Shown: piece after piece, positions 22,345 through 32,000 of the stretch
Layout of the letters: each line of letters begins with the position of its first letter
Position numbering within the stretch: the stretch's first letter is position 1
NCBI RefSeq assembly: GCF_014078525.1
Contig: NZ_MU078694.1
Span: forward strand, 357,885-389,884
DNA length: 32,000 bases
Origin: Nitrosopumilus sp. b3
Lineage (GTDB): Archaea > Thermoproteota > Nitrososphaeria > Nitrososphaerales > Nitrosopumilaceae
Direction: 5' to 3'
Translations under genes and position numbers: made by a program
Notes under the pieces: generated by a model
Database searches by the model: none
What the model was told of the DNA's origin: nothing
What the model saw: only the letters and a program-made list of their open reading frames with translations

Positions 22345-23784
22345 TTATTTTTTCTCTTGCTTGATTTTTTTTGGTAAAGATTTCTTATTTTTTGGTTTAT
22401 CGGATTTTGGTTTTTTTTCAAGTGATTTTAATTTTTTGCTTTTAGCGTCTATTTGTTTTTTTATTTTTTCTTGTTGTTTTTTTAATTTTTTATTTTTATT
22501 CTGAATTTGGCGGTCAATTTTTTCATGTTTCTTTTTGAGTGAATCATAAATCTTTTCTTCTTTTTTAATTTGAGCAGTCAATTTAATTTGAGATTTTAAT
22601 TTTGCTTTTTCTTGCTGAGTCTTTTTTGTAATCATTTGTTTTTCTTTAGAAATTTGATTGATTGATTCTAATCTATCTTCTTTTGCTTTGATTAATTCTT
22701 CTTCTTGTTTTTTAATTAATTTTTTTAATTTCTCAGATTCCTCAAATTTTGCTTTTTCTTCATTTACTTGAGAGAGAATTTCATCATATTCATTTTTACT
22801 TTTTTCTAATTCATCTTGTTTCAATTTGATCTCGTAAGCAATTTTTGCCTGTTCTCCTAGGCGTAATTTTTGCTCTTCAACCATTTTAGCCAACAATTTT
22901 TGCTCAGTTTTAACCTGTTTTTCAATATCTTCCTGCTCTAATTGAGCTTGTACCAATTGCTTTTTTTGTTTGGTAAGTTCGTTTGTGATTTTATTTTTTT
23001 CAGAATCAATTTCTTTAAGAATTTTTTCTCTTTCTTTTTTTACTTTGATTAATTCTTCTTTTTGGGCAATAATTTCTTCAGAGAGTTTTGTTTGAGATTC
23101 AATCCTTTCCCTCTCTTCTTTAATTTGTAATTCCAGAGATGATTTTTCTTGAGTTATTTTTTGATCGTATTCTTTTCTATGATTAATTAGTTGTGTCAAT
23201 TTTGTTCGCTGATGACTAAGTTCGTCAGATATTTTTTCCTGTTGTTCTATTTTGTGCTCTTCATTTTTAATATCCTTACTAATTTCTACAAGTTCTTTTG
23301 ATGTATCATTTGAATTCCATCCTTTTGGCATACTTCCACGAAGATTATGTTTTGATTCCTGGTTTTCATGTATTTCATTAACAGTTGATGAGGAGTTGGA
23401 TGTTTGAGTTAATTCTTTAGACATATTTTGTAATTTGACAGATGAATGAAGTTTAGATTCCAAGTATCGAATGTCAGATTGATACAGATATCTATCATTT
23501 AGAATTGTATCATGTATGTGTTGTAATCTTCCAGGATCTCCATTTCCAGATTCTATTAGTTCTTTAATTTTATACAGTAAATCATTTTCCTCATTGTTAG
23601 AATCATCTTCAAGAGAAAATGATGAATTTAGTTTGTTTTCTAGATAGACTTGATCAGAGTGATAAAGAGGTTCTCTATTTTTTACATATTCTAAAATATG
23701 GTACAGTCTACCGGCATCACCATTACCAGAATCAATTAGCGATTCTATTCTTTCAATGGTTTCTGTTAAGCTTAATTGGTTCAA
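22345..23784 (-). CDS. Large K/E-rich coiled-coil protein with duplicated N-terminal 'SGNGDxGRLxHI' module and poly-Lys tail
   Basis: 479 aa. Residues ~10-58 and ~70-118 form a 60-aa-period tandem duplication. About 300 aa of heptad-like K/E/Q-rich sequence follow. The C-terminus is KKLKKQQEKIKKQIDAKSKKLKSLEKKPKSDKPKNKKSLPKKIKQEKK. No NTPase motif. Confidence 0.8.
   Translation of the reverse strand: MNQLSLTETIERIESLIDSGNGDAGRLYHILEYVKNREPLYHSDQVYLENKLNSSFSLEDDSNNEENDLLYKIKELIESGNGDPGRLQHIHDTILNDRYLYQSDIRYLESKLHSSVKLQNMSKELTQTSNSSSTVNEIHENQESKHNLRGSMPKGWNSNDTSKELVEISKDIKNEEHKIEQQEKISDELSHQRTKLTQLINHRKEYDQKITQEKSSLELQIKEERERIESQTKLSEEIIAQKEELIKVKKEREKILKEIDSEKNKITNELTKQKKQLVQAQLEQEDIEKQVKTEQKLLAKMVEEQKLRLGEQAKIAYEIKLKQDELEKSKNEYDEILSQVNEEKAKFEESEKLKKLIKKQEEELIKAKEDRLESINQISKEKQMITKKTQQEKAKLKSQIKLTAQIKKEEKIYDSLKKKHEKIDRQIQNKNKKLKKQQEKIKKQIDAKSKKLKSLEKKPKSDKPKNKKSLPKKIKQEKK
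23431..23757 (-). repeat. Intragenic tandem duplication (2 x ~49 aa, period 60 aa / 180 nt) in the coiled-coil gene
   Basis: IERIESLIDSGNGDAGRLYHILEYVKNREPLYHSDQVYLENKLNSSFSL aligns with LYKIKELIESGNGDPGRLQHIHDTILNDRYLYQSDIRYLESKLHSSVKL, about 26 of 49 identical by my alignment. Confidence 0.7.
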
Positions 23785-23976
23785 TTTTCAGTCCTTTTTG
23801 ATTATTTTTGATATAATTTGGTAAAGATTACTGTTTAAAAAAAATTTACACATACATGAATTTTAGGTGCTTTGAATCACTACTAGAATCTAAATTAATT
23901 CCAGATATAGGATTACATTGGAAAAATTATCATTCTAAATATTCTCGTTTATTAATTAGAACATAATACCTGGGGT

Positions 23977-24201
23977 ATGAAAACAGGGTTTCCGATAATA
24001 ATCATAGGATCAGTCATGTTTGTATCTGGTCTTGTAATGTTTTACTCTATAGAACTAGGTCAAACAGATTACAATTTGAGATTGATTAAAAATATTGGAA
24101 CATTTATTGGTCTTGCAGGAATGGGCGTGACTTTGGCAGGGATTTTGCTTAACTTGATTAGTAAAAGTCAGCAACCTATACAAGAAAATTATGACGTTTA
24201 A
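23977..24201 (+). CDS. Small two-TM membrane protein (74 aa)
   Basis: It has two hydrophobic helices (FPIIIIGSVMFVSGLVMFY and IGTFIGLAGMGVTLAGILLNLI). Confidence 0.55.
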   Translation: MKTGFPIIIIGSVMFVSGLVMFYSIELGQTDYNLRLIKNIGTFIGLAGMGVTLAGILLNLISKSQQPIQENYDV

Positions 24202-24292
24202 TCATCAACGAATAACACCTTCTTATCAAAACACATTCAAGATAGAGTAGTACAAAACTAAATTATATATTCAAAATTTAGATAATTAAGAA

Positions 24293-24718
24293 ATGTCAGA
24301 AAAATTTTGGCTCGGATCAATCTATTTGAAGGATGAAGGCGGTTACGAAATAATCATCAAAGCATTGAAGCATTATAGAAACAGACTAAAAACTATAGGA
24401 AAAAGTCCAGAGCTAAAAGATTCTGCAGCAATGTTTTCATCAGTTCTAAATCAGCAAGCTGTAAAAACAATTCCCGTAATTGACAAAACAATACTAAAAA
24501 TTCAAAACAGTCTATCAGATATTGATTCAATAAAGAAATTAGAAGAAGATATTCCATTTATTGAGAAAGCATTATCCTGTTATGATGCAGACATAAAGAA
24601 AGCACAGGATACGGGTCACGAATATTTTGTAAAACTCATAGGCAATATGGTTGAAGCAAGAGACGATCTAAATACCATAAAAATGGCATTACGAAAAATA
24701 AAACTATTTTCAGAATAA
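24293..24718 (+). CDS. Hypothetical protein (141 aa), helical
   Basis: Long ORF. No motif recognised. Confidence 0.55.
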   Translation: MSEKFWLGSIYLKDEGGYEIIIKALKHYRNRLKTIGKSPELKDSAAMFSSVLNQQAVKTIPVIDKTILKIQNSLSDIDSIKKLEEDIPFIEKALSCYDADIKKAQDTGHEYFVKLIGNMVEARDDLNTIKMALRKIKLFSE

Positions 24719-24720
24719 TA

Positions 24721-24951
24721 TTACAATCCTTGCAAATACCAATCCAAGTATGGTCTTAATGCCTTACACTGTTTCTTTTTTTCAGATTCATTATCCAAGT
24801 CTATTATTTTTTGTATTTTTCCCTGAAGATATTCAGATGTCAAATTGCTTTTAAATTCAGGCATTATTTTTTCTAGAATTTCAAGAATTTGTGTGGATGT
24901 CGTATTCTCAAAGTCATCTATGACCATATTTACTTGCTCCTCTAGAGTCAT
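24721..24951 (-). CDS. Hypothetical protein (76 aa)
   Basis: ORF convergent with 24293-24718 (2-nt gap). No motif recognised. Confidence 0.5.
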   Translation of the reverse strand: MTLEEQVNMVIDDFENTTSTQILEILEKIMPEFKSNLTSEYLQGKIQKIIDLDNESEKKKQCKALRPYLDWYLQGL

Positions 24952-24988
24952 ATGATTATTTTAAAAATCCCATTATTATTTGATTCAA

Positions 24989-25216
24989 CTAGAAAACGTC
25001 TTCATCATCCCAAGTAATACGGAATCTTCCAGTAACTCTAAACATATGCAGTTTTCCACCTTTTTTAAAATTCAATTTGTATAACTTGTGTGATGAATCT
25101 TCAATATCTATGCCAACATTGTCTTTTAGGGTTTGAAACACTATTGGATTGTTAGAGATTTGTTTCCAGTCATTTTCATCAAAATCAAGATAGAATTTTG
25201 TATATAACAATCCCAT
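24989..25216 (-). CDS. Hypothetical protein (75 aa)
   Basis: ORF co-directional with 24721-24951 and 25259-25837. No motif recognised. Confidence 0.5.
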   Translation of the reverse strand: MGLLYTKFYLDFDENDWKQISNNPIVFQTLKDNVGIDIEDSSHKLYKLNFKKGGKLHMFRVTGRFRITWDDEDVF

Positions 25217-25258: not shown

Positions 25259-25837
25259 CTATTTATTCAATAGATTTTGAGGCAGCATAAACCCCAAATA
25301 ACTGACAATAGCTGGAAATATTATCTGAGAATGAGAATCATTTCGGATTATTTCAAAAATCTTATGGATTAATTGCTGAATCTCCAAATGCTCATCTTTA
25401 TACAATGTCTTCTTTGGATTTTTAACAGCATCCAATATCGTAAAACCATTATCAGTTTGAAGCAGATTTCTAAGGAGTAGATTAGCGAGGTTTATTTTCT
25501 CATCAATATCTTTATGTGAATAATCCGTATCCAGTCTATTAATCTGTGATTTTATATCATGAAAACAGTTTGTAGTGTTTCGTTCAACATAGTGCTGAGA
25601 TTTTGTCTCATAGTTATTTGACGGGGCATAAAATTTCCTATTTGCTTTTGTAATGACAACAATGATTTCTTTATCAATCAGTAAATTGCGTGTTTTTTCA
25701 AATGTTGTTTTTGCCATATATTCTGGAACAATTAACTTCATCAAGGCATTATGATGCAAATCAGGGTGTTTTCTAATAGTTTCAAGAACTATCCTTTCAC
25801 GCTCATATGTTTTCAGATTAGGCTCATAATGACTCAT
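25259..25837 (-). CDS. Winged-helix (wHTH) protein, paralogue of 19530-20096; divergent from the response-regulator gene
   Basis: 192 aa. N-terminal 'ERERIVLETIRKHPDLHHNALMKLIVPEYMAKTTFEKTRNLLIDKEIIVVI' is wHTH-like. It shares architecture and the LLQTDNGFTIL motif with the 19530 gene. Confidence 0.6.
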   Translation of the reverse strand: MSHYEPNLKTYERERIVLETIRKHPDLHHNALMKLIVPEYMAKTTFEKTRNLLIDKEIIVVITKANRKFYAPSNNYETKSQHYVERNTTNCFHDIKSQINRLDTDYSHKDIDEKINLANLLLRNLLQTDNGFTILDAVKNPKKTLYKDEHLEIQQLIHKIFEIIRNDSHSQIIFPAIVSYLGFMLPQNLLNK

Positions 25838-25965
25838 TTTATTTAGGTCGACCTATAATATACAGGTCATCTATTAATCAATATCGGTCTAGATTTTCCA
25901 CAGAGGAATTATCCATCGATATTAAATACAAATTTTGAGAGACAGATCACCTAACACATGTGGGA

Positions 25966-25985
25966 ATTGATGAGAAATCATCAAT
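25966..25985. promoter_or_regulatory. Perfect palindrome ATTGATGA-GAAA-TCATCAAT in the divergent promoter region, flanked by TTCCACAG direct repeats
   Basis: The 8-bp arms are at 25966-73 and 25978-85, about 72-91 nt upstream of the RR start codon. TTCCACAG occurs at 25896-25903 and 25987-25994. Confidence 0.35.
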
Positions 25986-26056
25986 ATTCCACAGTAATTT
26001 AGATTATTTTTGTGCGTTCAAGCCATTCAAACATCTGAATATTATCCCAAAAACTC

Positions 26057-27061
26057 ATGGAGATCATGGGATTTTACAATTCAACTATTTTGGTCATAGA
26101 GGATAGTAAAGCTGTACGAATTATGCTATCTCAATATATTAAAAAAATTGGATTCACAAAAATTATCGAATCAGAAACGGGTCAAGAGGGAATTCAAAAA
26201 TTTAATGAATTAGTGGAAATTGAAATCACACCCATTGTATTTGTAGGATATCATTTGCCGGACATGAGTGCAGCTGAAATTATTCCAAACATATTATCAA
26301 AAATGCCAATAACAAAAATTATTCTAGAGACATCAAAAGACAGACATGAAGAATCCGTACGAAGTTTATTTTCATTAGGGATTTCACATTACATGCCAAA
26401 ACCATTACGTTTTGAAAATATGAAAGAGGTGATCAGTACAATTAAAGAAGAATTTGAACTTGATGAAACGTCTGGAGTCGAAACAGAATCAGATAGAATA
26501 AAAGAACATTTGAAAGCAGTTCATCGCACAACCATAACTAGAATTTCACAAAATTGCGGATTACCAACAAAACAAGTTTTGACATATTTGCAAAAATTAA
26601 AATCAAAAGGAGATGTTATGCAAATGAATCCAATTAGAGAAATACTATGTTCCAATTGCAATTCAGTAAATACATCAACAATATTTTCTTGTCCAAAATG
26701 CACAAGTTCAAATTTTTCTGAAACGAGATTAATCGAGCACTATGATTGTGGCTCAGTTCATCCAGATAAAATGTTTAAAGATGATATTTGTCCACAATGT
26801 CAAAAAGAGATCAAAGCGATAGGGGTAGATTATAGGATAATGTCAAATTTGTTTATCTGTAAAGACTGTGAAGAAAGATTTCCAAATCCAGAGATTGATC
26901 TGAACTGTATTAAATGTGGAAATAAATTCACATTTTTTGATGGTAAATGGATTGACAGTCCAACATTCATGTGGATGAAAGAACCATTAGAATCAAAGAA
27001 TATGAATGAAGAAATAACTAATCAGGAAATAATCAATACTATTTCAAATTTAAGTCAGTAA
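26057..27061 (+). CDS. Response-regulator-like protein: atypical receiver (no phospho-acceptor Asp) + wHTH-like segment + multi-zinc-ribbon (TackOD1-like) C-terminal domain
   Basis: 334 aa. In the REC fold, 'ILVIEDSKAVR' keeps the acidic pair, 'IILETSKD' keeps the T/S and 'YMPKPL' keeps the Lys. Aligned with CheY 'FVISDWNMPNMDG', the sequence 'IVFVGYHLPDMSA' puts Gly at the Asp57 position. The C-terminal half has paired Cys motifs CSNC...CPKC, C..(H)...CPQC, CKDC...CIKC. Confidence 0.8.
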   Translation: MEIMGFYNSTILVIEDSKAVRIMLSQYIKKIGFTKIIESETGQEGIQKFNELVEIEITPIVFVGYHLPDMSAAEIIPNILSKMPITKIILETSKDRHEESVRSLFSLGISHYMPKPLRFENMKEVISTIKEEFELDETSGVETESDRIKEHLKAVHRTTITRISQNCGLPTKQVLTYLQKLKSKGDVMQMNPIREILCSNCNSVNTSTIFSCPKCTSSNFSETRLIEHYDCGSVHPDKMFKDDICPQCQKEIKAIGVDYRIMSNLFICKDCEERFPNPEIDLNCIKCGNKFTFFDGKWIDSPTFMWMKEPLESKNMNEEITNQEIINTISNLSQ

Positions 27062-27093
27062 ATGTTTTTTGCCACAGATAGACCCAGTCCAAT

Positions 27094-27246
27094 ATGCTTA
27101 AGTTTGGAGAAATTCTAAAAAAATCCATGGACCTAAATGAATTGCATCAAAAAGAGATTGATTCGCTTAGAGATGAAAATATAGAATTAAGGAACAAAGT
27201 AAAAAAACTAGAAGAGAGAATTCAAGAATTAGAGAGAAAAGAATGA
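27094..27246 (+). CDS. Micro-ORF s1, 50-aa coiled-coil peptide (not in the ORF track)
   Basis: Codon-by-codon translation: MLKFGEILKKSMDLNELHQKEIDSLRDENIELRNKVKKLEERIQELERKE. It starts 33 nt after the RR stop. Its TGA (27244-46) overlaps the next ATG (27243-45) as ATGA. Confidence 0.55.
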   Translation: MLKFGEILKKSMDLNELHQKEIDSLRDENIELRNKVKKLEERIQELERKE

Positions 27247-27383
27247 CGTCATTTGAAGATAAAATACGAGAAAAGATGATTAGACAAAAAGAAGAGTATG
27301 AGAAATATAAGAAAAAAGAGGGAGATTCAGACCTACTCTTTAATGAAAAAGACAATAAGAGTAAAATTCAGGATAAAGAATGA
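27243..27383 (+). CDS. Micro-ORF s2, 46-aa highly charged peptide (not in the ORF track)
   Basis: MTSFEDKIREKMIRQKEEYEKYKKKEGDSDLLFNEKDNKSKIQDKE. It has ATGA overlaps at both ends, and the two junctions share the 10-mer AAAGAATGAC. Confidence 0.55.
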   Translation: MTSFEDKIREKMIRQKEEYEKYKKKEGDSDLLFNEKDNKSKIQDKE

Positions 27384-27550
27384 CTGAAAATGCCAATGAT
27401 GTCTACTCAGAAATAGACGAAGAATTAGAAATTACAGACGAGCAAGCACAAGAACTTTTGAAATTAAATGAAAAAGAAATTCAGATTTTAATTCTTTCTG
27501 AATTAAAAAAAATAACATCACTTCTTAATCAAAGAAAAACCAAAAAATGA
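27380..27550 (+). CDS. Micro-ORF s3, 56-aa peptide with acidic N-terminus and basic C-terminus (not in the ORF track)
   Basis: MTENANDVYSEIDEELEITDEQAQELLKLNEKEIQILILSELKKITSLLNQRKTKK. Its TGA (27548-50) overlaps the ATG (27547-49) of the 3D-domain gene. Confidence 0.55.
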   Translation: MTENANDVYSEIDEELEITDEQAQELLKLNEKEIQILILSELKKITSLLNQRKTKK

Positions 27551-28275
27551 AACTAGGAATTATAATTGCAGTGATTTTGATTGGAATAATTGGAATAGAA
27601 GAATCGTTTGCAAAAGAGTCAAAAATCCCAAATTGGATATTAGATGTTTATGATTTTTGGGCAGAAAAGAAAATTTCGGATGCAGAATTAATTAATGCAG
27701 TAAAATTTCTAAATGAAAAAAGTATCTTACCATTAGTACTACAAAAGGAATATGACTATAAATCAAATTTTTTATTGACTATATTACATAACGACTTTGT
27801 ATACGAAGAAAATTCTTGTAATGATGGATGGTATGTTACAGGGTACTTCATACCTGTAGAATCAGATTACTCTAGTTATGCCATAGAAATTAAAATTGAT
27901 GATCAGTTCTTTGAATATGATTATGATTTTGTAGATTCTGTGAAGAGAGAAGGTTGGGGGAAAACAAATAATGGAAATTATTTAGGTTGGTATTCAAATG
28001 AATTTCATCTAAATGAAGTTCCTTTGGATAATTTTGGGAATACATTAAAAGTTGGAACCATTGCTATTGATCCTTTATCATATGAATTGGGCTCTAAAAT
28101 ATTCATTTCATCCCTTATTGAACCATGGAATGAGATAATTTTTACTGCCAATGATGTTGGCGAATCAGTAAAGAACAAGCACATTGATGTTTTTACAGGA
28201 GAAGGTATAGAGGCTGAAAAGGAGACCTTCAGAATAACAAGTTACAATAATTCGGCATGTTTTATAGATGAATAA
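27547..28275 (+). CDS. Secreted protein: signal peptide + 'IPxW...W..KISD' module + MltA/3D-like (double-psi beta-barrel) C-terminal domain
   Basis: 242 aa. N-terminal hydrophobic signal MKLGIIIAVILIGIIGIEESFA. The C-terminus 'GWYVTGYF.P.ESDY' ... 'EGWGKT..G.YLGW' ... 'VGTIAIDP......GSKIFI' ... 'FTANDVGESVKNKHIDVFTGEG' carries the three spaced Asp (AIDP / NDVG / IDVF) that define the 3D domain of MltA-type lytic transglycosylases. Confidence 0.7.
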   Translation: MKLGIIIAVILIGIIGIEESFAKESKIPNWILDVYDFWAEKKISDAELINAVKFLNEKSILPLVLQKEYDYKSNFLLTILHNDFVYEENSCNDGWYVTGYFIPVESDYSSYAIEIKIDDQFFEYDYDFVDSVKREGWGKTNNGNYLGWYSNEFHLNEVPLDNFGNTLKVGTIAIDPLSYELGSKIFISSLIEPWNEIIFTANDVGESVKNKHIDVFTGEGIEAEKETFRITSYNNSACFIDE

Positions 28276-28479
28276 TTTTTTGGTAATATTTTTGAGAGTA
28301 AAAATTTTCTTAGTTAAAAAAATCCACATCAATCCAGTAAACTATCATGAAGATGTATTCAAGATCTCAATCCAGAAATAATCATCATTACTACAAGGAA
28401 AACGCCCAATCCCATTACTCCGATTGTAATGAGTTTTAGTATATGATAATATGTGATTATTGGTATATGAGTTTAGAAT

Positions 28480-28668
28480 CTAAGAATTTATGAAGACTTT
28501 AGAATTTGATACTGTAATCATCTCAACTGCTTCAATTTCCATATTCTCTTTATTTGAAATTTCGAGAATTTCATCACGATGTACTTCTTTCAAATGTTTC
28601 AAGAATTCTTCCTCTTCAATATCATTATGTTTGTAATTACAAGAGGTGAAAACACAGTTGAAATTCAT
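28480..28668 (-). CDS. Small protein with C2H2-like zinc-finger signature (62 aa)
   Basis: The N-terminus FNC-VFTS-C-NYKHNDIEEEEFLK-H-LKEV-H gives C-x4-C-x14-H-x4-H with the aromatic/hydrophobic positions of a classical finger. The spacer is 2 residues longer than canonical. Confidence 0.45.
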   Translation of the reverse strand: MNFNCVFTSCNYKHNDIEEEEFLKHLKEVHRDEILEISNKENMEIEAVEMITVSNSKVFINS

Positions 28669-28746
28669 TGAATATTATTTAATATAGAATATTTTTATCT
28701 TTTATTCCTAAAAGATGTGCTTTACTTTTAATGGCAAAAATGCCAT

Positions 28747-29151
28747 TTGATATTATTGCTAAATACATTCCTGATTTTCGGATTGACAGTTACTTTGTTT
28801 ATTGGGCTGATTTCATTTGTAATGGCTGACTCTGATGAAGAATATTTGCAACTCAAAAGAATCTATGATGAGCAAAGATGGAATCTTGAAAAGGAATTTA
28901 AAGAAAAATTCAAACAATCGAGTATTCAGTTTAAGGAGAAAAAACAAGAGATCTATGAAAAAAGTGAATCAGACTCAACATCGACAGTTGAACAAACCAA
29001 CCAAATGCTCAGAAATGCATTTCATGAATTTCTAGATAGGCAAAAAGAAATCAAAACAGAGTATACCTCCAAAGTAGATGCACTAAATGAAATGTTTACA
29101 AAAAAATTTGAACAGTTTGAAAATAAATACCTCTATGGGTTAAAAAAGTAA
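28747..29151 (+). CDS. N-terminally membrane-anchored coiled-coil protein (134 aa, TTG start); reading frame appears interrupted at its 3' end
   Basis: A TM helix (LLLNTFLIFGLTVTLFIGLISFVMA) is followed by K/E-rich helical sequence. It ends ...YGLKK-TAA-TAG, with the heptamer A-AAA-AAG (29142-29148) directly before the stop. Confidence 0.6.
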   Translation: MILLLNTFLIFGLTVTLFIGLISFVMADSDEEYLQLKRIYDEQRWNLEKEFKEKFKQSSIQFKEKKQEIYEKSESDSTSTVEQTNQMLRNAFHEFLDRQKEIKTEYTSKVDALNEMFTKKFEQFENKYLYGLKK

Positions 29152-29300
29152 TAGAGTTATGGGATGAAGGAAAAATATCAGATATTGAATTTGTAAACTT
29201 TTTATCATTTTTAATCAATAATGATATAATCACAGTAAACCAACTAGATTTTTTAAAATATGACAGTAAAATTGTGCAGTTGATTAACGTGGCAAAATGA
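29127..29300 (+). other. Start-codon-less -1-frame continuation encoding a second 'IPxW...W..GKISD' module (frameshifted 3' part of 28747-29151, or product of -1 frameshifting)
   Basis: The -1 frame is open from 29127 to TGA 29298-29300. It reads IPLWVKKVIELWDEGKISDIEFVNFLSFLINNDIITVNQLDFLKYDSKIVQLINVAK. That is 15/37 identical to residues IPNWILDVYDFWAEKKISDAELINAVKFLNEKSILPL of the 27547 protein. There is no ATG/GTG/TTG before the motif. Confidence 0.5.
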
Positions 29301-29397
29301 GGTATTTTTTGTTTTTCGAATTCATTATTTATTTATATCAAAAAAATTAACTTCATATCTTTAGTAATTCCACATAATTTTTGACTGTGAGGTTTTT

Positions 29398-29895
29398 TCA
29401 TTGAATAAATTCATACTTTTTAACAATCCTCCATTTGTCTATATCTTCATGAAATTTTTGAATCCACATTCCTGTTACTTTGAAATTATTTTTGATGGAA
29501 ATAGAAAATGCTAATTTTTCTTGCTCATCAGGGTTCATTTTTTTGTAAATCAAACTCACATGTGGAATGAACTCATATTTACTAATAGAATCAAGAGATT
29601 CTGTTAATTTTTTGTTTATTCTTGTCAATGGTTTGTTTGGATGAAATTCTACAAACAACGTCTTCCAAAAAACATCAGAATAGGACACACTGCTTTTTTC
29701 AATGATAAACTGTTTTTCACCTTGAATACTATTTCTGACGATATTGTCTAATTCATCAAGATCGATATTGACTAACCCATAAGCTGTGATATGGGGTTTG
29801 AAGGGATGAGCATTATATTTAGAACTTAGATCATTGATGATATTTGCAAAGTAGTCTGTATCTTTTTTTTCGAATACAAACCAAATAGCACACAT
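29398..29895 (-). CDS. 2H phosphoesterase superfamily protein (cyclic phosphodiesterase / LigT-like)
   Basis: 165 aa with two H-x-(T/S)-x motifs at the expected spacing: 'PHITAYG' and 'PHVSLIY'. Confidence 0.7.
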   Translation of the reverse strand: MCAIWFVFEKKDTDYFANIINDLSSKYNAHPFKPHITAYGLVNIDLDELDNIVRNSIQGEKQFIIEKSSVSYSDVFWKTLFVEFHPNKPLTRINKKLTESLDSISKYEFIPHVSLIYKKMNPDEQEKLAFSISIKNNFKVTGMWIQKFHEDIDKWRIVKKYEFIQ

Positions 29896-30000
29896 TGTAT
29901 TTTTACTGAATTTTTGGTTTTAAATTCTATTCAACAAACAACCTCATATCATAATTCTAGTTACAGTACAATTTTACTCACAAAGAGGGTGCGTATCCTT

Positions 30001-32000
30001 TTACTCTTTGTCGATAAATTCGTTGACACTTGGTGGTTCTGGTGCAAGTCCTTTTCGCTTTCTAATATCAGCAACTGCTGGTCCTAACATTGATTTTGGC
30101 ACTTCAGTCCATTCCTTAAACGAAGTATTCCATGTTGCACGTCCTGCCGTCTGACCTCTCATTTCTTCAGATAGTGTAAATGTCTCAGAAGCTGGAATTT
30201 CACCAGTGATGATACTGGAGGCACCTTTTTGGGACATGTCAAGTACTTTACCTCTCTTTCCAGAAAGAACTGTTGCTACGTTTCCAACTAAATCAGTTGG
30301 TACACGAACTTCAATAGCTAAAGTTGGCTCTAAAACTGCAGTTCCTGCAGTTAACAATGCACCCATACATGCTCTACGAGAAGCAGGACCTAATTGAGAG
30401 AGTCCTCTGTGTGCAGTGTCTTCGTGAGGAACAAAGTGAGTAAAGATAAACTTGCAATCCCTCATCTGCTCTTTACATAGAGGTCCCTCTTTCATCACTT
30501 CTTCAAATCCAGAATTAATTGAATCAGTAGATTCTTGTACAAATTGTACACCCTTTGTTCCATTAATCAAAACATTTCCTCGAGAATCAAATTTCATTAC
30601 TCTCTTAATTGTATCAGTGTCCCATCCAGCTTTCTTCAATAGCTCTGCAACCACTTTCTTGTCTTTCATGTCACTGATTTCACCAGTTCTTAACATGTGT
30701 GCAATTTCAGGCTCTAGCGGTTCTACTTTCATGAAAATTTTATTGTGTCTATTTGGAGATTTTGCCATGATTGGTTCGCAACCAGCCTTTACAGTTTCTC
30801 TATAGTTAATCAAAGGTTCAGATGTAACAATTTCACATTTTGCATCTTGGATTCTATGTGTAGCAACATCAAGATGTAAAACTCCCATACCTGCAACAAT
30901 CGTTTCGCCACTTTCCTCATCAATTTTTACAATAAGATTAGGATCTTCAATTGTTAGTTGCTTGAGAATTTCAACAAGTTTAGGTAAATCTTTAGGATGT
31001 TTAGGTTCTATTGCGATTTGAACAACAGGTTCTGAAACATAGTGTACTCCTTCAAACATTGGGATGTCTTTAACAGAAGACAAAGTATTTCCTGCTCTAG
31101 CTTCAGTAAGTCCAAGTAATGCAGGAATGTTTCCAGCTCCTAATTCTCCTACTTGCTCTCTTTGGTTGCCCATAAAGAAATTTACAGATTGTATACGTCC
31201 CTCTCTCTTTGCATCAATAATGTTAATTGTTTGGCCATCTTTGACTTTGCCTGAAAATAATCTACCAATCGCTACAGGTCCCGCTGCAGGATCTAAAACC
31301 ATGTTTACAATCATCATAATGGTTGGGCCCTCATCGCTACATGCAAGCAATGCTTTTCCAACATCAGAATCTAAATCACCCTTCCAAATTTGTGGAATTC
31401 TATACTTTACTGCTTCATGGGGTGCTGGATGATGTTTTACTACCATTCCAAGTACAGCATCAGCTAGGGGTGCTTTTTCAACTAATTCAGCAACTTTTTC
31501 ATTTTCATATGCATCAATTACATCTTTAAATGAAATTCCACGCTCTTTCATCAAATCAAGGTTAATTGCCCACCTATCCTTTGCAGAACCAAATGTCACA
31601 CTAGCATCCTGAATGGATACTTTCCATTTTTCCTTGTATTCAGGTTCAGCGTATGTATCAATTAATTGGTTAAAGTTCGATACAACATCTGCTAATTGCT
31701 GTTGCATTTTTTCAGGAGTTAATCTTAGTTCTTTGATTAGTCTATCAACTTTATTGATAAACAAAACTGGTTTTACACGTTCTTCCAGAGCCATTCTAGT
31801 TACAGTTTCAGTTTGAGTCATTATACCTTCAACTGCATCACATACTACAACTGCCCCATCAATTGCTCTAAGACTTCGAATAACCCTTCCACTAAAGTCT
31901 ACGTGTCCAGGAGTATCAATCATGTTAATGACATATTCTTTATCATTTTTTGTAAAGTGTAAAGTAACGTTAGCTTGATAAATTGTAATTCCTCTTGCTT
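30001..32000 (-). CDS. fusA: Translation elongation factor 2 (aEF-2), 5' end beyond the window
   Basis: 'DTPGHVDF', 'NKVDR' and the diphthamide-site region 'HEDTAHRGLSQL' are present. The frame stays open upstream of the track's Met (31923) to the window edge (...ARGITIYQANVTLHFTKNDKEYVINMIDTPGH), so the gene is truncated by the window. Confidence 0.95.
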   Translation of the reverse strand, partial: ARGITIYQANVTLHFTKNDKEYVINMIDTPGHVDFSGRVIRSLRAIDGAVVVCDAVEGIMTQTETVTRMALEERVKPVLFINKVDRLIKELRLTPEKMQQQLADVVSNFNQLIDTYAEPEYKEKWKVSIQDASVTFGSAKDRWAINLDLMKERGISFKDVIDAYENEKVAELVEKAPLADAVLGMVVKHHPAPHEAVKYRIPQIWKGDLDSDVGKALLACSDEGPTIMMIVNMVLDPAAGPVAIGRLFSGKVKDGQTINIIDAKREGRIQSVNFFMGNQREQVGELGAGNIPALLGLTEARAGNTLSSVKDIPMFEGVHYVSEPVVQIAIEPKHPKDLPKLVEILKQLTIEDPNLIVKIDEESGETIVAGMGVLHLDVATHRIQDAKCEIVTSEPLINYRETVKAGCEPIMAKSPNRHNKIFMKVEPLEPEIAHMLRTGEISDMKDKKVVAELLKKAGWDTDTIKRVMKFDSRGNVLINGTKGVQFVQESTDSINSGFEEVMKEGPLCKEQMRDCKFIFTHFVPHEDTAHRGLSQLGPASRRACMGALLTAGTAVLEPTLAIEVRVPTDLVGNVATVLSGKRGKVLDMSQKGASSIITGEIPASETFTLSEEMRGQTAGRATWNTSFKEWTEVPKSMLGPAVADIRKRKGLAPEPPSVNEFIDKE

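Follow-up and report, generated by a model that had tools for sequence, protein, structure and literature searches.

An Asp-less TackOD1 response regulator and an adjoining accessory cassette of microproteins and an MltA-like 3D protein in Nitrosopumilus sp. b3

Gene content of the block and its distribution among relatives

We analysed a stretch of 32,000 nt, called the window below, from Nitrosopumilus sp. b3, a marine ammonia-oxidising archaeon (AOA), and within it the block at 25259-29300. An earlier note on this DNA had described seven linked elements in this block, and the list of open reading frames (ORFs) placed all seven where the note had put them. They comprise gene a, the divergently transcribed response regulator (RR, gene b), three microprotein genes (s1, s2 and s3), gene d for a secreted 3D protein, and genes e and f. 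Comparison with related genomes indicated that the block is probably made of two separable units, a core a-RR pair and an accessory cassette of s1-s2-s3-d, e and f. The features are as follows.

25259-25837, minus strand: gene a, 192 aa, divergent partner of RR, with a possible N-terminal winged helix
26057-27061, plus strand: gene b (RR), orphan regulator of receiver (REC)-(winged helix-turn-helix, wHTH)-TackOD1 type; Gly64 at 26246-26248
27062-27126, plus strand: 65-nt spacer between RR and s1, in which GCTTAAGTTT is conserved at -31..-22 relative to the s1 ATG and may serve as an internal promoter
27127-27246, plus strand: s1, 39 aa, leucine-zipper-like, with Leu at 14, 21, 28 and 35
27243-27383, plus strand: s2, 46 aa, highly charged, with a conserved EGDSDLLFNEKDNK motif and an ATGA overlap with s1
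27380-27550, plus strand: s3, 56 aa, of an unnamed widespread Nitrosopumilaceae family, with ATGA overlaps with s2 and d
27547-28275, plus strand: d, 242 aa, secreted; signal peptide at about residues 1-22, MltA-like domain at about 88-242
27625-27726, plus strand: IPxW module of d, residues 27-60, with model helices at 30-39 and 45-57
28480-28668, minus strand: e, 62 aa, C-x4-C-x14-H-x4-H, convergent with d
28747-29300, plus strand: f, coiled-coil protein, either secreted or anchored, that ends in an IPxW module; frame 1 at 28747-29151, tail frame at 29127-29300

The gene order a, RR, s1, s2, s3, d, e was found in four lineages: b3 with locus L001, L002 with L013-18, L019, and N. adriaticus (L022/L023). 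The identity of d to the b3 protein was 95% in L001, 81% in L002/L013-18 and 84% in L019, and gene f occurred in three of the four lineages. The cassette was absent from L005 and L006/7, whose RR orthologues (80% and 76% identical, respectively) both carry Gly at the phospho-acceptor position and keep gene a and the genes upstream of it. Nothing lies between the RR and ef-2 genes at these loci, and the two stop codons are separated by 67 nt in L005 and by 21 nt in L006/7. Gene a adjoined RR in every lineage compared, including those that lack the cassette. Furthermore, relatives of the 3D protein at 47-58% identity were found in four other locus contexts, where neither s1-s3 nor this RR was present; in L003 and L020, the relative (56-58% identity) stood at a different locus with no s1-s3.

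RR, s1-s3 and d, whose co-occurrence the earlier note had raised as a check, were found together in four close lineages and not in the next relatives of RR, s3 or the 3D protein. These comparisons indicate that the parts of the block do not make up a conserved system. The first unit would be the divergent a-RR pair, core to a Nitrosopumilus subclade. The second would be an accessory cassette of the N. adriaticus/sp. b3 clade, situated in the variable stretch that runs from RR to ef-2.

RR is an Asp-less regulator under strong selection

The receiver of RR was recognised by Pfam Response_reg (PF00072; residues 11-126, 40.1 bits against a cut-off of 30.2, E 4.7e-10), and RR aligned with CheY by BLASTP at E 2e-11. 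In the alignment, Gly64 of RR occupies the position of CheY Asp57, as the earlier note had read it, while the E15-D16 acidic pair, T92 and K115 are retained. The Gly was fixed in relatives P0121-P0126 and P0129 (62-95% identity), which read VF[VL]GYHLPDMS as in b3, and distant members of the family (<=60% identity) keep the Asp in FLD[YF]xLPD. Because the same residue recurs across the relatives of the subclade, Gly64 is not a sequence error, and the alignment indicates that the loss of the phospho-acceptor Asp is derived and fixed in this subclade. In addition, the dN/dS of RR against L001 was 0.06, indicating strong purifying selection. As RR lacks the Asp and yet is strongly constrained, it presumably acts independently of phosphorylation.

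Receivers that lack the Asp and work without phosphorylation are known among bacterial response regulators, including HP1043, FrzS and the AmiR type. Like these, RR has kept the receiver fold under selection and partly retains the acidic pair, the Thr and the Lys; it differs from them in being archaeal and in having another output domain.

The output domain of RR matched TackOD1 (PF18551; residues 168-290, 89 bits against a cut-off of 32, E 3.8e-25), and its putative ligands C198/201, C212/215, H228/C231, C245/248, C268/271 and C284/287 were invariant in an alignment of 23 relatives. Between REC and TackOD1, a sub-threshold match to HTH_24 was detected (E 0.059, residues 157-185). According to Galperin et al. 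(2018; PMC5847659), TackOD1 is an output domain of Thaumarchaeota in which 11 Cys are conserved, in five CXXC motifs plus HXXC; they report it as TackOD1, REC-TackOD1 and REC-wHTH-TackOD1 and in type IV pilus loci, and they call its function 'obscure'. RR shares its domain order and its CXXC/HXXC motifs with the thaumarchaeal REC-(wHTH)-TackOD1 proteins (PF18551, arCOG06883; PMC5847659), which are known in Nitrosopumilus. The regulator type is thus already known, the variant found here being the Asp-less one.

RR differs from these regulators in having Gly for Asp and in having neither a type IV pilus locus nor a kinase near it. No type IV pilus genes (ATPase, membrane platform or pilins) were found among the genes of the 32-kb window. 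Pfam detected no HisKA or HATPase_c domain in any ORF of at least 90 aa in the window, which agrees, for ORFs of that size, with the earlier report that a histidine kinase is missing. RR is therefore an orphan within the window, and a distant cognate kinase may exist. As to the start of RR, translation from ATG 26066, giving a product of 331 aa, is more likely than from 26057, judging from where the homologues start and from a TATA-like AATATTAT at positions -28..-21 relative to ATG 26066. An exact look-up of the RR protein gave no match, probably because its gene has been called from a different start codon.

The divergent gene a was more difficult to classify. Its sole Pfam match was Penicillinase_R at E 0.028, below the cut-off; searches of the Protein Data Bank (PDB) with sequence and profile gave no match, and the single-sequence AlphaFold2 (AF2) model, with a pLDDT of 41, was unusable. 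The gene itself was confirmed, and the wHTH attributed to it previously corresponds to this sub-threshold Pfam match.

s1, s2 and s3 are small coding genes chained to d

s1 had been described as a 50-aa ORF beginning 33 nt after RR. The gene was upheld and its start was not. The 50-aa form needs ATG 27094, which is in frame in b3 and L001; in the lineages of L002 and L019, AAG stands at this position and stop codons precede it. The conserved start is ATG 27127 (MDLNE…), which gives 39 aa and a spacer of 65 nt. The three consecutive ATGA stop/start junctions were confirmed at 27243, 27380 and 27547. Stop/start overlaps were kept in all cassette lineages; ATGA itself was found in N. adriaticus and L002, and two junctions in L019 are overlaps of 14 nt and 11 nt, not ATGA.

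To assess coding, variable sites were counted by codon position in five sequences from four lineages (b3, L001, L002, L019 and N. adriaticus L023). The counts at the first, second and third positions were 4/3/15 for s1, 9/3/21 for s2 and 4/1/25 for s3, and shifting the frame of the count moved the peak of variability accordingly. Furthermore, the dN/dS between b3 and L002 was 0.31 for s1, 0.11 for s2 and 0.05 for s3. This third-position bias, together with dN/dS values of 0.05-0.31, indicates that s1, s2 and s3 are real coding genes. We also considered whether they are pieces of a single broken gene; this was ruled out, as each has a conserved ATG and relatives of s3 are free-standing. Hydrophobic segments are absent from all three, and, as they also lack signal peptides, they would act in the cytoplasm. 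s1, s2, s3 and d would form a four-cistron operon whose overlaps would permit translational coupling, and the conserved junctions make it most likely that the four genes are translationally coupled.

s1-s3 belong to no named family, as the earlier note had stated for the small components; the output domain of RR (TackOD1) and the family of d (3D) are named. s3 had no Pfam or PDB match. An exhaustive HMMER search placed it in a wider family of proteins of about 45-60 aa, with 29 cluster representatives at E<=1e-3 and the core TYxKINEEIKFTEEETxELLKLSEKEILVLILSELKK. Its members include a Nitrosarchaeum limnium protein and marine sequences on 188 and 273 contigs. A metagenome scan with close s3 sequences as the query found nothing, and a scan with the s3 family alignment yielded 80 loci (L024-L103). 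The s3 relative was solitary in 74 of these 80 loci, and its neighbours changed from locus to locus. An s1-like gene adjoined it in two (L024 and L063), an s2-like gene was divergent from it in four (L030, L032, L033 and L034), and in none of the 80 did a 3D gene or a TackOD1 regulator lie beside it. An s1-like protein of 83 aa also stands alone elsewhere (P0162, L011), and this was the only return of a word-indexed search with the concatenated s1, s2 and s3, although the collection searched does contain the microproteins. These results suggest that s1, s2 and s3 represent three small families of AOA that are loosely associated with one another and are chained to a 3D gene only in this clade.

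The longer s1-like proteins (68-83 aa; L011:1059-1310 and L063:66-191, minus strand) have an MDLNE…DSLRDENIELRNK zipper and an acidic C-terminal extension. Their genes are free-standing, and one adjoins a Thiamine_BP gene.

d is an MltA-like 3D protein with a widespread N-terminal module

The C-terminal domain of d matched Pfam 3D (PF06725; residues 171-225, 32.2 bits against a cut-off of 23.8), and a signal sequence ending in …ESFA|KE was recognised by inspection. An AF2 model built from a 50-sequence alignment reached a pLDDT of 83.7. In a Foldseek search, the top matches of this model were MltA proteins (E. coli, A. baumannii, Neisseria and others; E 6e-8 to 2e-5). In total, 14 MltA-type chains matched at E<=2e-5 with query-normalised TM-scores of 0.41-0.49, and YuiC and expansins matched much more weakly. 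Residues invariant in the 50-sequence alignment were D161, D175, D203, D214, K211-H212, E226 and the C91/C238 pair. Three of the invariant Asp (D175, D203 and D214) lie in the 3D region. These results agree with the earlier description of a signal-peptide protein with an MltA/3D domain, and the model supports d being a secreted MltA/3D-type protein. A total of 303 relatives of d were collected; all named ones are from Nitrosopumilales, they are often annotated as '3D domain-containing protein', and some genomes have several paralogues. A scan of genome contigs with d returned one locus only.

Compared with the MltA/3D lytic transglycosylases (PF06725; PDB 2pi8, 2ae0 and 7esj; YuiC, 4wjt), d shares the 3D domain, the predicted fold, three Asp and secretion. 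It differs in its host, which is without murein, in an AOA-specific two-helix N-terminal module and in its identity to MltA of only 11-14%.

Nitrosopumilales have no murein, and the substrate of d must therefore differ from that of MltA. d would be exported by the Sec pathway, held at the cell envelope by its IPxW module and, because these archaea have no murein, may cut or remodel a glycan of N-acetylglucosamine (GlcNAc) type.

The N-terminal module of d was also found in the tail of f (46% identity over 35 aa, E 2.6e-7). The earlier note had seen the same module in both proteins, and in this it was correct; a paralogy private to d and f was not borne out, as the module is widespread in AOA. 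It is a two-helix element of about 35 aa, IPxW[IV]K…WW.eG.I.D.eF..gIq[FY]Li..gII, N-terminal in every 3D relative examined and C-terminal in f (29127-29230). Two copies end a matrixin-like metalloprotease (L010:1389-2879, minus strand), and two copies end a polysaccharide deacetylase (L008/L009; L008:11322-11582, plus strand). No Pfam model covers the module, the canonical tandem form included. IPxW thus appears to be a general module of AOA secreted proteins and provides no evidence for a special relationship between d and f.

Linkage of RR to the cassette

The earlier note had taken RR, the microproteins and d as one expression unit. The tightly overlapped s1-s3-d part of this claim stands; that RR belongs with it in one system is not supported, since Gly-type orthologues occur without the cassette. 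We analysed promoter positions in 272 regions upstream of genes in the window and in the fetched Nitrosopumilaceae loci. TATA-like hexamers peaked at -30..-26 from the ATG, with 66 against about 12 per 5-nt bin, and this sharp peak suggests that most Nitrosopumilaceae mRNAs are leaderless or have very short leaders. The GCTTAAGTTT element between RR and s1 is present in all cassette lineages, as the variant GCTTAAGTCC in L019, and is a degenerate TATA-like element at the right distance from s1. A T6 run follows the RR stop codon in b3 and is not conserved.

The best surviving alternative to two separable units is a single dedicated system made up of RR, s1-s3 and d, in which a phosphorylation-independent regulator is co-transcribed with three stoichiometric microproteins and with the secreted enzyme that they control or escort. 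Several observations favour such a system and weigh against our reading. In every cassette genome, the cassette lies directly downstream of RR on the same strand, across a spacer of 62-72 nt with no canonical TATA box, and the overlapping junctions are kept in all four cassette lineages. With the same strand and a short spacer of this kind, RR and the cassette may be co-transcribed, and, given their adjacency, RR may control the cassette. Furthermore, a TackOD1 regulator again neighbours a 3D protein, independently and in another arrangement, in L008/L009. The order at L008:4786-11585 is a 322-aa 3D protein, the RR-TackOD1 protein (Asp-type, 60% identical to RR), a chitin-synthase-like GT2 protein whose start overlaps the stop of the regulator gene, and a 911-aa deacetylase. 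In addition, at L010:3357-7857, a 3D gene and a histidine kinase gene are divergently oriented, with an MCP-like protein and a CheY-like REC protein nearby, and at L003:8560-8967 a REC-only gene lies two genes upstream of a 3D gene. This proximity of 3D genes to two-component genes hints at a real regulatory link and may be due to chance, the four contexts being too few for statistics; an envelope glycan controlled by two-component-type regulators is still conceivable on these grounds. Finally, the lineages sampled do not polarise gain versus loss of the cassette.

A single dedicated system nevertheless seems unlikely. In addition to the cassette-less Gly-type orthologues of RR, the 3D relatives at 47-58% identity in the other contexts fetched are found without s1-s3 and this RR, the s3 relatives are solitary in most metagenome loci and never beside a 3D gene or RR, and a conserved TATA-like element stands at the right distance upstream of s1. 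We thus retain a core a-RR pair and a separable accessory cassette as the preferred reading.

The 3D protein of L008 has a transmembrane anchor and a Met/Gln-rich linker, and the L009 locus is alike. The L008 locus resembles an exopolysaccharide locus, and a group of genes that includes PriX, located just upstream, may represent a mobile element. The small ORFs that precede the 3D gene of L008 were considered as analogues of s1-s3 and rejected; they are Cys-rich, zinc-ribbon-like and unrelated.

In bacteria, exopolysaccharide loci of the poly-N-acetylglucosamine (PNAG) type combine a GT2 synthase with a polysaccharide deacetylase. The likeness to these loci lies in L008/L009, with their TackOD1 regulator, GT2 protein, deacetylase and 3D protein, and serves as a working analogy only; there are no synthesis genes in the b3 window, and the analogy concerns an RR paralogue of 60% identity from another lineage. 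Because of the L008/L009 arrangement, one might picture TackOD1 and MltA-like 3D proteins as a recurrent AOA pair that controls how a polysaccharide of GlcNAc type, at the surface or outside the cell, is made and trimmed. In b3, the Asp-less RR would then drive the enzyme constitutively or via a ligand, s1-s3 would be cytoplasmic adaptors, and s3 would be a pan-Nitrosopumilaceae regulatory microprotein. We regard this wider scheme as improbable.

The variable stretch between RR and ef-2

Two further genes belong to this region.

29398-29895, minus strand: CPDase/2H-phosphoesterase-like gene (Pfam CPDase, E 1.4e-8), in the variable stretch
30001-31923, minus strand: ef-2, ORF of 640 aa as listed (730 aa in relatives), convergent boundary of the variable stretch

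EF-G/EF-2 Pfam domains were detected in the genes syntenic with ef-2. Gene content between RR and ef-2 varied beyond the cassette: N. adriaticus has the CPDase gene, a 117-aa gene and a SnoaL gene, L002 has neither f nor the CPDase gene, and b3 lacks the 117-aa and SnoaL genes. The CPDase gene is present in N. adriaticus and L001 and absent from L002 and L005, and is thus unlinked to the cassette. In an earlier comparison, RR, two hypothetical proteins, the 3D protein and CPDase were listed as unique to N. adriaticus relative to N. piranensis and N. maritimus (PMC6593220, Dataset S1). Casposons of Thaumarchaeota were reported to target ef-2 more often than any other site, and two of them are present there in N. 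adriaticus NF5 (PMC6563490). In NF5, a Cas1-containing insertion (the casposons published as NitNF5-C1/C2; L023:11639-16117) lies between the SnoaL gene and ef-2 and is absent from the second N. adriaticus genome, CP167059.1.

The location between RR and ef-2 raises a second alternative, namely that the cassette was left, as cargo or debris, by mobile elements integrating at the 3' end of ef-2 and is decaying piecemeal, with no host-adapted joint function. The casposon target and the two casposons in NF5 are in line with this, as are the variable content (L002 without f and CPDase, b3 without the 117-aa gene and SnoaL and with f frameshifted) and the AT-rich composition (28-29% GC). The 32-kb window is AT-rich as well (about 26-39% GC). 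However, Pfam detected no Cas1 or integrase at 27062-30000, and a repeat search found no terminal inverted repeats, target-site duplications or att sites around the cassette; no casposon was found in the window. PHROG searches gave only weak coiled-coil or 3D-like matches and none of note. A scan of viral contigs returned only a 22-residue fragment, and no viral-contig relatives were found. Moreover, purifying selection acts on s1-s3, d and e in the four lineages, and members of the s3 and 3D families occur as ordinary genes of the chromosome throughout Nitrosopumilaceae. We therefore consider cargo or debris without a joint function quite unlikely. As neither integrase, Cas1 nor flanking repeats were found, a mobile-element origin of the cassette is only a possibility.

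With two separable units as the preferred reading, the value of the locus lies in what came out of its parts rather than in the system that had been claimed. The Asp-less TackOD1 subclade, under strong selection, would offer a handle on how orphan archaeal regulators are switched. An MltA-like family with intact Asp across ammonia oxidisers without murein raises the question of the envelope or exopolysaccharide substrate in AOA. s3 defines a conserved family of microproteins of about 50 aa across Nitrosopumilaceae, and the IPxW two-helix module, for which there is no database model, marks many AOA secreted proteins. The cultured N. adriaticus NF5 carries the intact locus, so these points can be tested there.

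Genes e and f

Gene e would encode a small C2H2-like protein of the cassette on the opposite strand. It travels with d in all four lineages, with tblastn identities of 76-100% in L001, L002, L019 and L013. By inspection, C5, C10, H25 and H30 are conserved in the four lineages. The dN/dS of e was 0.19, and no Pfam zinc-finger model matched it at E<=0.1. The 3D relatives at 56-58% identity precede a convergent gene for a 69-aa multi-CxxC protein, probably zinc-binding (L003:10812-11021, L020:943-1152 and L004:1302-1511, all on the minus strand). This protein and the 62-aa e are unrelated in sequence.

Gene f would encode a secreted coiled-coil protein, inactivated in b3. The earlier note had placed its frame change behind an A-AAA-AAG heptamer, which was refuted. 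In b3, one A has been lost from the run at 29125-29127 (L001 AATAAAATA against b3 AATAAATA), and this 1-nt deletion, which lies before IPLW and 15 nt upstream of the heptamer, splits f; the gene is a single frame in three other lineages, namely L001 (181 aa), L019 and N. adriaticus (168 aa). Only b3 showed the truncated form of 131 aa, which has the same sequence as C6990_04235 from Nitrosopumilus sp. b3; the 90% clusters of a, s1, s2 and e likewise contain b3 proteins. f is absent from the L002/L013 lineage. Although the heptamer at 29142-29148 is in the correct phase, synthesis of f through programmed -1 ribosomal frameshifting is hardly credible, since f is one ORF in L001, L019 and N. adriaticus, one A is missing in b3 relative to L001 upstream of IPLW, a stop codon stands immediately before IPLW in the tail frame, and ribosomes that slip at the heptamer would miss IPLW and not restore the conserved protein. 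These comparisons indicate that f was inactivated in b3 by a single-A deletion and not that it is made by programmed frameshifting.

In the PADLOC search for anti-phage systems, f gave only a weak match to PDC-M44A, a candidate-system model (E 0.0038), which was treated as chance.

Neighbouring genes

Elsewhere in the 32 kb, Pfam identified purC/F/L/Q, TatC, a flavoprotein, a CBS-TrkH transporter, an O-methyltransferase and ef-2, besides genes with no assignment. An Rfam scan of 24.5-30.2 kb detected no RNA family, and none of the PADLOC anti-phage models matched a, b, s1-s3, d, e or CPDase. Upstream of gene a, at 22345-25216, lie the gene for a 479-aa coiled-coil protein and genes of 74, 141, 76 and 75 aa; these four had no Pfam match. 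The 479-aa protein has a weak JetC/MukB-like match, and PADLOC likewise gave only a weak match for it. This run of uncharacterised genes is syntenic in all relatives, including those that lack the cassette.

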